Positions 11,008 through 13,935 are shown, counted from the stretch's first letter. The stretch is 64,000 bases of DNA from Catajapyx aquilonaris (GCA_000934665.2 KZ538464.1:1-64000), one strand, 5' to 3'. Translations and numbers: made by a program. Notes: a model not told the origin generated them from the sequence alone.

Positions 11008-13935
11008 ATGGTATCACTCTATGTGGGAGACCTTCACCCAGACGTTACTGAAGCTATGCTGTTTGACAAGTTCTTGACTGCTGGCCCACTGTTGAGCATC
11101 CGGGTTTGCAGGGACAGTGCTACACATCGGTCTCTTGGATATGGGTACATCAATTTCAAGCGGCATGCTGACGGTCAGTCCAACAGTAACTACCTACTCC
11201 CAGGTTTTCCTCCCTGCATGTTTCATTATAATTTTACTGTGTTAAATCTCTCATTCAATATTGTTGTTCTGAATTTGGCCACTTTGCCAGTTTACTCCAG
11301 GTTGGTGTTGTGGTTGTTTCCTGTGTCGTAATTTTAGCCTTCACCTAGACAACATTATTCTGGCAAATTACTGGTGATTCTATTAAAGCCAATTTCTTTT
11401 TAAATAATTTGAAGTGTTAAGAAGAAATGCAAATTTTTGGATGTTTTGGGAGGCACACACGCTTTACTGCTACTGGAATGGAGTGTTAGCGTTATGTTTG
11501 GAATATACAATATATATTTTTTGCCATAGGGTAATAGTGCTAGGTACCATTATCTTCCATTTCTTACCTCTAAAACACTTTCTTAAAAAACAGCTCAGCG
11601 AGCCCTAGATACCATGCAACAGCTTGAAATCAAGGGAAAGCCCATCCGCCTCTCGTGGTCGCAGAGCAATCCCGCCTTGCGCAATTCAGGTGTGGGAAAT
11701 TTGTTTGTCAAGAATATCGACAAGTCAATTGGCAGCAAGGTCTTGCATGACAAATTTTCTGCCTTTGGCAACATCCTAAGCTACAAGCTTGCCACTGATG
11801 ATAATGGGGTATCCAAAGGCTACGGATTTGTCCACTTTCAGACTGAGAAGGCCGCCAACAAGGCCATCAATGAGGTTAGCATTATTTTATGTCTGCTGGT
11901 GTTACTTCACATTTTTAATGTTGGATGACTATCACTGCCATAGTGTGATTGCACAACCTAGTGACTAGTGAAGTTTTGCTTTCTGAATGATGTAATAAAA
12001 GCCAAAAACATTGTCAAATATTGCTGTTATTGCTATTTATCAGACGTGATATTCTTATAGATGAACGGACTAATGCTAAATGGAAAGAACATATATGTAG
12101 GGAAATTCATCCCCCGCAAGGAGCGTGAGAAGGAGCTTGGTGAGAAGACCGATAACATCACCAATGTGTATATCAAAAACTTTGGTGATGATTTGGATGA
12201 TGACAAACTCTATAAGATGTTTGAACAATTTGGCAAGATCACCAGCCACAGGGTGATGACTAACGCAGAAGGCAAGTCTAAAGGCTTTGGCTTTGTGTCA
12301 TTTTCCTCCCCCGACGAGGCCGCAAGGGCAGTCTCCACGATGAATGGGCACGTTGTTAGGACCAAGCCCCTGTATGTCGCCTTTGCTGAAAAAAGGGAAG
12401 TCCGCAAGGCCCACTTGGCCTCTCAGCATCTGCAAGGGCAAGATGCACATGCCCACCACATGCCTTCACAGCCCTTACCAGAGAGTGTCAATGAACTACA
12501 GACTGCCCCGATCAGAGACATGCCATCCTGCCCTGCTCAGCTTGCACAAGCCATCCCTGGAGGACATGCCCCTGCAGGTCAGTTTTGATAGGGAAAGGAA
12601 TGAAAGTAATTTAACCCGCACAGGTACTTTGCAATCAGATGGTCAAGTTCCCATTAACTTGCTTGTATATGATGCTCCAAATGGCATGCGATTAATGTTC
12701 TCTTGAGCATAGCAAAATGGTGTTGAGAGTTGGACTTGCTGGAGATGATGACCACGTGATAGGCAGCCATTCCACAAAGGGTTATCCAACTACATTACAG
12801 TATTTGAACTTTAGGACCATACCTAATATCTTTCAGCGCATTATTTCTCATTACAAGTCAAATTGACATGAGGAATTGGATGCTTTGACGGTGGGAAAAT
12901 TGTGGTTTCCTAATCCTGGGGGTTGCATAAAAGTCTTGAGAGCAGGAAATATTTATCATTAATAGGGGTGCCCTGTTTGAATGGTTGTTTGGACACTTGT
13001 TCCACCCCCACACACTGTAAATTGCCAGTGCATTGGATGAATCCCTTATGTGATGCATTTGCAGCAAGGAATAAATAGCAAGCCAATCCACTACCATGTG
13101 AAAGTCAGCTTCATGGCTGTTGTGGGCAGGGTGAGTGAAGAGAGAGGCTGATTTTATGATTATGTTTTTTTCAGGAAGCGTAAATAAGCATACCCAGTCC
13201 TTACATTCGTGGCTGCAAAAACTTCATATCAATGTTGTGTATCATCACAACAATTTGGGAACTATTTCTGCAAGCAATGGGAAGGAAGGTAGAGAGAATG
13301 AGGGAAGGCGAATGGGGATGAGGTCTCTGAGAAAATCTATTGTACTACCCATCATCCTTACTTATTTTAGTGGTATATTTTCAATTTTATATTGTGCTGG
13401 TGTCTCTGTCACAATGTAGGTTATGCAAAACAAAACAAAAATTCCTGCTGAATTAGTGTATATTACACAGGCTGTAATTGTAGGTAACTAGGAATGAAAT
13501 GTGTGAAGGCCTTGTAGTGTGTTGTCTCAGAGAGTTTAACCTAGTATAATTTCTAAACCAATAAGATTTAATTTTTCAGATTTGCCTAGCATGCAGTCGC
13601 AGGTCCGCACCAATGCCAGTCATTCCACTACTGCTCAGGCTGATTTCATCGGCATTCCAATATCCAGTGACACAATTTTCGGACAGCAGCCTGTTTTGGG
13701 AGCTTCCATGGTGGCTGGAGGCCCTATGGGGAGTGGACCAGCTGCAGGGTTTATTGCCACAGACCAGCAGCACTACATGGCTGGTGGACGAGGAAACAAG
13801 CTTGGAGGAGGAGCTGGGGTTGTTGTTGGTGGTCCTCCTGCTGGCTACAATTCCACTGCTAACAGAACCAAGCCCCCTGGTGGAGAGGTGGGAACAGCAC
13901 AGCAGAAGCCTGGCTATGGTTGGAGAACCATATAA
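11008..13935 (+). CDS. PABPC: Divergent cytoplasmic poly(A)-binding protein paralog, ~439 aa: RRM1, RRM2, hybrid RRM3/4, Q/G/P-rich tail, no MLLE
   Basis: Exons 11008-11173, 11594-11874, 12061-12577, 13580-13935 (phases 1,0,1; 1320 nt). Motifs [77 protein letters not shown]. Last exon is less certain. Confidence 0.9.

Follow-up and report, generated by a model that had tools for sequence, protein, structure and literature searches.

A three-RRM poly(A)-binding protein gene of Catajapyx aquilonaris with an RRM3/RRM4 hybrid domain and no MLLE

Four RRMs in the order 1-2-3-4 and a C-terminal MLLE domain are defining features of the cytoplasmic poly(A)-binding proteins (PABPC), and both are absent from a PABP gene in a 64,000-nucleotide stretch of the Catajapyx aquilonaris genome (GCA_000934665.2 KZ538464.1:1-64000; hereafter, the window). 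How did such a gene arise, is it held by selection, and what could its product do on a poly(A) tail? Four exons with GT-AG introns throughout (1320-nt CDS) encode 439 amino acids, and the C terminus reads GYGWRTI*. Pfam RRM_1 matched 3 of the 7 scanned frames, one RRM apiece, in the frames of exons 1 to 3; MLLE matched 0 of 7. The features of the gene are as follows.

11008..11173, + strand: exon 1, carrying the start codon and the greater part of RRM1; GT donor at 11174; Pfam RRM_1 E=3e-12
11174..11593, + strand: intron 1, 420 bp, a homolog of the first intron in the canonical PABP gene
11594..11874, + strand: exon 2, with the end of RRM1, the linker, and RRM2 to helix 2; Pfam RRM_1 E=2e-16
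11731..11754, + strand: helix 1 of RRM2, eIF4G face, with D->G (11731-33), A->V, and T->K (11752-54)
11869..11874, + strand: end of helix 2 of RRM2, eIF4G face, with D->N and K->E, common to all three copies
12061..12577, + strand: exon 3, with strand 4 of RRM2, the linker, the hybrid RRM3/4, the post-RRM4 helix, and the start of the C-terminal linker; a single Pfam RRM_1 stretch, E=6e-20
12285..12304, + strand: crossover interval within RNP1, where the RRM3 N-half passes into the RRM4 C-half, placed by the switch of informative sites
12578..13579, + strand: intron 3, 1002 bp, partly homologous to the parent intron after the RRM4 exon
13580..13935, + strand: exon 4, a remnant of the G/P/Q/A linker exon, aligned to the parent and two sister exon-4 copies
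14283..14288, + strand: candidate variant polyadenylation signal ATTAAA; a similarly spaced ATTAAA lies past the stop in both sister 3' flanks

Elsewhere in the window, we noted a 348-codon open frame with E/D/Q-rich tandem repeats (3983-5026), preceded by a 271-codon frame (3023-3835), and, from translations judged by eye, a decayed retroelement-like frame (22751-23344) and a kelch-repeat-like exon (55091-55681). A segment of ~300 bp (3823-4124) shows 81% similarity to DNA lying upstream of the canonical PABP gene, has inverted ends as judged by eye, and is probably a small non-autonomous transposon.

The direct parent of the gene is the canonical PABP gene (PABPC1/Pab1) of this same genome, on contig C2083, which encodes four RRMs, a linker, and MLLE (705 amino acids modelled up to the MLLE exon). 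Over RRM1-4, its protein shares 93% identity with damselfly PABPs, which were the nearest named proteins among the best 120 of 3155 matches. Parent and window copy share intron positions, intron sequence, and the order RRM1-RRM2: the intron after exon 1 has an identical position, 29% of 408 aligned columns differ between the two copies of intron 1, and exon 2 contains no indels relative to the parent. By blastn, the window matched the canonical gene at 71% over 10964-11900 and at 67% over 12277-12796, the latter match being the basis of the intron 3 homology. Amino acid identity to the parent is 70 to 77% per RRM segment, and the RNP motifs, the first half of the post-RRM4 helix, and the first part of the linker are likewise common to both; unlike the parent, the window copy has three RRMs including a 3/4 hybrid, lacks MLLE, and carries an altered eIF4G face. 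The protein tree alone leaves the clade of hybrid proteins unplaced on a long stem, and descent from PABPC rests on the exon and intron homology.

A search of the genome with exon 3 returned 29 matches, among them two sister copies (a and b), both on contig C1104 and 11.4 kb apart, that cover the whole query at 87% and 86% identity. A third exon 4, on contig C1246, ends at the same stop codon as the window copy; copy a runs to the edge of its contig, and this exon 4 may be part of it. DNA common to the window copy and copy b extends from ~10270 to 14324, along with shorter pieces at 9370-9970; their other matches within window positions 5000-25000 are short and repeat-like. Since the sharing is confined in this way, the window gene is a separate locus and not an allele of copy b. 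It is highly probable that the gene arose by duplication, at the DNA level, of the cytoplasmic PABP gene of the same genome and that the deletion described below took place in the ancestor of the three copies.

Other PABP relatives are scattered through the genome. A diverged duplicate of the canonical gene (C3386:1339-5150) has four RRMs and MLLE, with a dS of 0.23 and a dN/dS of 0.22 in the RRM region and with substitutions in RRM2 and MLLE. An old, strongly diverged paralog on C2953 comprises RRM1-4 pieces, with no MLLE within the 15 kb examined. A lineage that has only the RRM4 exon is represented by an open 230-aa frame inverted beside the canonical gene (C2083:25311-25574), a further copy, and a frameshifted copy (C9572, C8241).

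The preliminary description of this locus placed a direct run from the RRM3 N-half into the RRM4 C-half at the RNP1 motif (12277-12303), and the switch indeed maps inside that motif. Compared with the genome's own canonical PABP, the 90 nt upstream are 83% RRM3-like and 58% RRM4-like (28 versus 5 informative sites), while in the 57 nt downstream the informative sites number 19 for RRM4 versus 6 for RRM3. In all three copies, sites are of the RRM3 type up to 12285 and of the RRM4 type from ~12304. Half-domain HMMs assigned the three RRMs as 1/1, 2/2, and 3/4, with margins of 36 and 47 bits for the third, and a PDB search with exon 3 gave yeast Pab1 as the best match, its first part falling on RRM3 and its second on RRM4. 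An AlphaFold model of exon 3 residues 1-126 (19-row alignment) folded the hybrid as one RRM, with a pLDDT of 77-92 over residues 31-110 (mean, 69) and an rmsd of 1.0 A from human PABP RRM2 over 73 columns. The model indicates that the hybrid sequence is compatible with an RRM fold and shows nothing beyond that.

The proposal that the hybrid arose by in-frame deletion through recombination between the two RNP1 sequences was supported by the parent gene. Its RNP1 codons of RRM3 and RRM4 are identical at 19 of 20 nt, and the crossover site holds the longest exact word (11 nt) common to its RRM3 and RRM4 exons. Between these repeats, 458 bp of the parent are missing, comprising 315 coding bp and a 143-bp intron. 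The loss of about 100 amino acids with no intron at the junction, as first described, is therefore real, and its exact size is 105 codons, or 102 if the parent uses a second acceptor 9 nt downstream; the corresponding segment of the parent did contain an intron. Because the other introns are kept with recognizable sequence, the deletion occurred at the DNA level and was not RNA derived, and the frame survived because both RNP1 repeats share the same register. We infer recombination between the repeats, by unequal crossing-over or single-strand annealing. The intron inside RRM3 of the canonical gene ends in two AG acceptors 9 nt apart, which would give RRM3 with or without three residues, and a database homolog has a similar three-residue insertion.

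Could the junction have been created by the assembly, through collapse at the RNP1 repeat or loss of an MLLE exon in a gap? Such an artefact would agree with the observation that, among the read-layout pieces listed (205 more exist), none is shown to bridge the junction with 31 letters on each side. However, three separately assembled copies carry the junction, are 91 to 93% identical to one another around it, and are all ~20% diverged from the parent on both of its sides. The parent itself was assembled intact. Contigs of three DNA runs, which may be the source of the assembly, covered all bins (30 of 30), and the pieces listed include no joint at the junction. The region between 7123 and 24149 contains no N runs, and the same stop codon is present in three exon-4 copies. 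The collapsed assembly that the preliminary description had itself considered is thus largely refuted and highly improbable.

The claim that the protein has no MLLE domain, and hence no PAM2 docking, was borne out by the Pfam scan and by an MLLE family search of the genome, which returned four matches, none of them on the contig of the window or those of the sister copies. Nothing in the window was homologous to the MLLE exon of the parent, either as DNA or as protein. An alternative frame past the stop, read as a decayed MLLE, was rejected, having neither a Pfam match nor DNA homology to that exon. As first described, the protein ends in a G/P/Q-rich tail; more precisely, the tail corresponds by homology to the linker exon of the parent, and this homology stops near 13905 and is followed by ~9 unrelated codons to TAA. 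The three exon-4 copies end at the same stop codon and the same break in homology. MLLE was lost by an event separate from the RRM deletion, and both are older than the split of the copies. Two of the MLLE matches (C611:9179-9358 and C2724:11289-11510) are without RRM exons in the surrounding stretches examined.

Is the shortened gene still constrained? A broken frame, as expected of a pseudogene, was seen in none of the copies: the window copy and copy b have an open frame with GT-AG introns, and the exons of copy a and the exon 4 on C1246 are open. Indels were in frame in 6 of 6 coding events versus 4 of 22 non-coding ones (p=6e-4), and there were no stops (~5 expected) and no frameshifts (~12 expected; p=0.045 at a quarter of the indel rate). 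Over the RRM region (~270 codons), dN/dS was 0.23 for the window copy versus copy a, 0.33 versus copy b, and 0.49 for a versus b. Against the parent, the window copy gave a dN/dS of 0.19 at a dS of 0.88, and in the tail dN/dS was 1.2 to 1.4. The dN between the window copy and its sisters (0.06 to 0.07) is near the intron divergence (0.06 to 0.09), and GC3 has fallen from 0.77 to 0.59, which inflates dS. RRM-region synonymous divergence among the three copies is 0.21 to 0.25, ~3 times that of introns and double the tail value, an excess partly explained by GC3 decay.

Because intron divergence was as low as dN, we retested dN/dS with the local mutation spectrum, derived from non-coding DNA of the same gene (1912 aligned bases) and applied to the exons. 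The neutral expectation was 20.5 synonymous and 56 non-synonymous differences (synonymous share, 0.27). Observed were 39.5 and 34.5 for the window copy versus copy a (share, 0.53; p=7e-7) and 34 and 42 versus copy b (share, 0.45; p=6e-4); for a versus b, the synonymous excess was not significant with the same spectrum (p=0.15). The window terminal branch has 11 synonymous versus 7 non-synonymous changes, with an expected synonymous share of 0.28. The signal is in part an excess of synonymous change, yet amino acid change lies 25 to 40% under expectation, so the constraint is real but relaxed. In the window copy, 139 of 184 near-invariant positions are kept and 45 (24%) are changed. We conclude with moderate confidence that the frame and the RNA-binding motifs of the RRM region have been under relaxed purifying selection, with the tail free to change: the RRM region departs from neutral coding evolution, and the tail does not.

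These data bear on the idea that the copies are redundant duplicates in a birth-and-death PABP family, in which the deletion was tolerated as the frame was kept and selection is relaxing, the window copy being perhaps silent or without a distinct role. The neutral tail and the changed near-invariant sites agree with it, as do the many diverged PABP pieces in the genome (the four-RRM duplicate, the old copy, single-RRM offshoots, a frameshifted fragment, and two further MLLE matches). The genome also contains partial duplicates of eIF4G, and so may keep many idle duplicates in general. The deficit of non-synonymous differences (35 to 42 versus 56 expected), the intact frame in all copies, the composition of the window terminal branch, and the age of the lineage, with its dS of 0.88 to the parent, argue in the other direction, and we regard redundancy as a possible but somewhat unlikely explanation.

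Transcript evidence came from a run of another study (X5) that is not on record as RNA. A 228-nt contig of this run, with 27 letters on the exon-2 side and a depth of 3.2, joins exon 1 directly to exon 2, and a second contig lies over exon 2 (contig depths, 3 to 4.5). Loose ends of these contigs carry a 9-nt insertion unique to copy b, and their 21 differences from the window in exon 2 are the 21 differences of copy b. Sister copy b is therefore probably transcribed and spliced. Among the X5 contigs, none matched the window copy itself, a point in line with redundancy; the run has depth in 6 of 30 window bins, none over exons 3 and 4, and is uninformative on the window copy or the hybrid exon.

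The preliminary description implied an intact eIF4G function through RRM1-2 and missed a change of the eIF4G face of RRM2, which is split over exons 2 and 3. We mapped 17 eIF4G-site positions of yeast Pab1 RRM2 (PMC4335499) onto the parent through the PDB-search alignment. Relative to the parent, the window copy has substitutions at 8 of the 17 (at 5 of the 8 core positions and 3 of the 9 peripheral ones), and the core changes number 6 of 8 and 7 of 8 in the sisters and 1 of 8 in the four-RRM duplicate. Elsewhere in RRM2, the three copies are changed at 18, 17, and 19 of 67 positions, so that core-site enrichment gave p=0.053 for the window copy and 0.009 and 0.002 for the sisters, the copies not being independent. 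When three homologs with extra RRMs are excluded, 117 of 117 have D113, T120, M164, and L165 (numbered as in the parent), and the helix-1 D and T among these are altered in all three copies. With more than half of the core positions changed, several of them otherwise invariant, the implied function is not supported in that form. The aromatic residues of RNP1 and RNP2 are kept in 6 of 6 motifs of the window copy; other RRM1 and linker residues are changed.

eIF4G is bound in different modes in yeast and animals, and yeast measurements are given here with that difference in mind. In the yeast eIF4G1 two-hybrid table (PMC4335499, supplement file 1), the log2 scores are -2.09 for D138G, -2.03 for D184N, -0.85 for A141V, 0.03 for N139S, 0.04 for Y143H, 0.23 for M189L, and 0.04 for L190M, and the entry for T145K is blank. 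Of the seven substitutions with a score, two are thus damaging, one is mild, and four, including the M->L/L->M pair, are neutral; the two damaging ones, D->G and D->N, are shared changes that each lower the signal ~fourfold. In the same table, T145I, the change found in the mammalian protein neuPABP, scores 0.05, and L186M scores -4.63 but equals the human residue and is uninformative here. Together with the intact RNP motifs, this pattern suggests an eIF4G site that is damaged, not certainly dead.

A partner that had changed along with the protein was sought among the eIF4G genes. A MIF4G search of the genome returned 14 matches; by ORF reading, C2141 carries two eIF4G-like copies in tandem, and C3238 a diverged one. 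The first gene on C2141 contains a PABP-binding-like and an eIF4E-binding-like motif, and the exon for the eIF4G N-terminal peptide is at C2141:10638-10799. Within C2141:10638-33985, a partial copy follows this gene in tandem, beginning a short way before MIF4G and without either motif, and C3238:3879-4433 is a further diverged MIF4G copy. In the genome, a PABP-binding-like motif was seen in only one exon, and no diverged compensating exon was found, a weak negative. A loose pattern scan was uninformative (103 matches versus 55 in a control), and the one match followed up lay among stops.

The condition of this face bears on whether the protein is an active PABP with three RRMs, able to bind both poly(A) and eIF4G and to support translation, and is blind to PAM2 regulators (eRF3, PAN3, Tob, GW182, and Ataxin-2). 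The absence of MLLE, the 6 of 9 peripheral site positions that are kept, and the several eIF4G-face changes that are conservative or neutral in yeast would allow it. Three RRMs can work, since an engineered PABPC1 consisting of RRM124 rescued the growth of human cells and an RRM4 deletion did not (bioRxiv 10.64898/2026.06.05.728833), though the construct was not stated to lack MLLE. Like that construct, the natural protein has three RRMs and ends in RRM4, of which the hybrid keeps the C-half and the helix; the engineered proteins have whole domains and a native eIF4G site, whereas the natural one has a within-domain hybrid and no MLLE. All three copies carry D->G, T->K, D->N, and K->E on the eIF4G face, with no co-evolved eIF4G partner evident, and MLLE-independent routes to Pan2-Pan3 and Paip2 remain. 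An active role is unlikely in our judgment.

Those routes also limit what the loss of MLLE can mean. In established work, RRM1-2 provide specificity for poly(A), RRM3-4 bind more loosely, and MLLE docks PAM2 proteins. Yeast Pan2-Pan3 is reported to contact RRM1-2 and the RRM4 linker helix (PMC6547884), and Paip2A is reported to bind RRM2-RRM3 as well (PMC9019252). The protein is therefore predicted not to be wholly outside control. The suggested escape from PAM2-mediated deadenylation stands insofar as MLLE and PAM2 docking are lost and is overstated insofar as MLLE-independent contacts are partly kept; escape from Paip control is overstated for the same kind of reason, the RRM2-RRM3 contact of Paip2A.

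The closest known system is neuPABP (PABPC1L2A/B) of mammals, described as binding poly(A) and repressing translation in vitro; restoring three residues, including a Thr, regained eIF4G binding and ended repression (PMC10546976, section 9). The Catajapyx protein is likewise a truncated PABPC paralog without MLLE, and its RRM2 is substituted on the eIF4G face, the same Thr being among the changed residues (human T118, by our own offset from the numbering of that report). At the three neuPABP positions, it has Thr->Lys, a conservative Leu->Met, and an Asp that is already Gly in the parent. Unlike neuPABP, which as described has two RRMs and a novel N-terminal extension, it has three RRMs with a hybrid and no such extension, keeps its introns, and originated independently in an arthropod, and its loss of eIF4G binding is a prediction. 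It is predicted to work like neuPABP, yet is not a member of that family.

Mammalian PABPC5 and PABPC4L have four RRMs and are not known to carry MLLE; both are diverged PABPC paralogs but contain no hybrid domain. Human EPAB was at one time said to have three RRMs and to lack a PABC domain, a description doubted by the authors of a review (PMC6105736). In the literature, judged by titles and the openings of abstracts and with few subscription papers covered, we found no natural RRM3/RRM4 hybrid PABP.

Among database proteins, the same hybrid was absent from the best 120 of 3155 matches, a ranking that favors four-RRM proteins, and from 165 further proteins (15 of 15 from one search and the best 150 of 27085 from another), 285 in total; rankings of this kind make the blank a weak one. 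Eight of the 165 were flagged for mixed halves, each with one weak margin (at most ~12 bits) and with motifs spanning at least four RRMs, compared with half-domain margins of 36 to 47 bits in the three copies here. A 135-aa fragment flagged as a hybrid runs into unrelated sequence, and three fish proteins aligned at 99% coverage are models containing additional copies of RRM3 or RRM4 and not hybrids.

Our main reading, to which we assign a probability of roughly 0.45, is that the gene encodes a tail-coating paralog that would dock neither PAM2 proteins nor, efficiently, eIF4G, in the manner of mammalian neuPABP. In an ancestral duplicate, recombination between the RNP1 sequences of RRM3 and RRM4 very probably removed the 458 bp to leave one well-formed hybrid RRM, the 3' end was cut within the linker exon so that MLLE was removed, and the shortened gene then duplicated twice more to give the three present copies. 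The protein would bind poly(A) through RRM1-2 and the hybrid RRM, with a smaller footprint, while PAM2 proteins would not be docked and eIF4G would be bound weakly or not at all. Because it would recruit neither PAM2 factors nor much eIF4G, it could cover the tails of quiet mRNAs in competition with canonical PABP, holding bound mRNAs poorly translated and partly shielded, and this masking may act in some tissue or stage. Counting against a tail-coating role are the weak constraint, with 45 of 184 near-invariant positions changed; a dN close to intron divergence, an inflated dS, and the p=0.15 for a versus b; the borderline eIF4G enrichment (p=0.053), with four of seven measurable substitutions neutral in yeast; and the absence of the same hybrid from any relative among the 285 proteins retrieved.

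A bolder extension, which we consider doubtful, is that the copies form a natural, selected family of 'mute' PABPs, with RRMs fused in RNP1 and both protein platforms (MLLE and the eIF4G face) independently shed. Such proteins might store mRNAs under a cover specific to a stage or to the germline, leaving a shorter footprint on the tail, and would represent arthropod convergence on neuPABP, perhaps within a wider set of re-wired translation-factor paralogs of this genome.

The gene is a lineage-specific variant among truncated PABPC paralogs; it is known so far from one genome, and truncated PABPs without MLLE were known already. It offers a clean, mappable case of a change in RRM number by RNP1 recombination and a natural test of the contributions of RRM3 and RRM4, a question under study with engineered swaps. 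If the tail-coating reading is true, PABP paralogs that keep RNA binding and drop eIF4G and PAM2 docking would have arisen independently in arthropods and mammals, which would suggest a general route from translation activator to tail-masking repressor.
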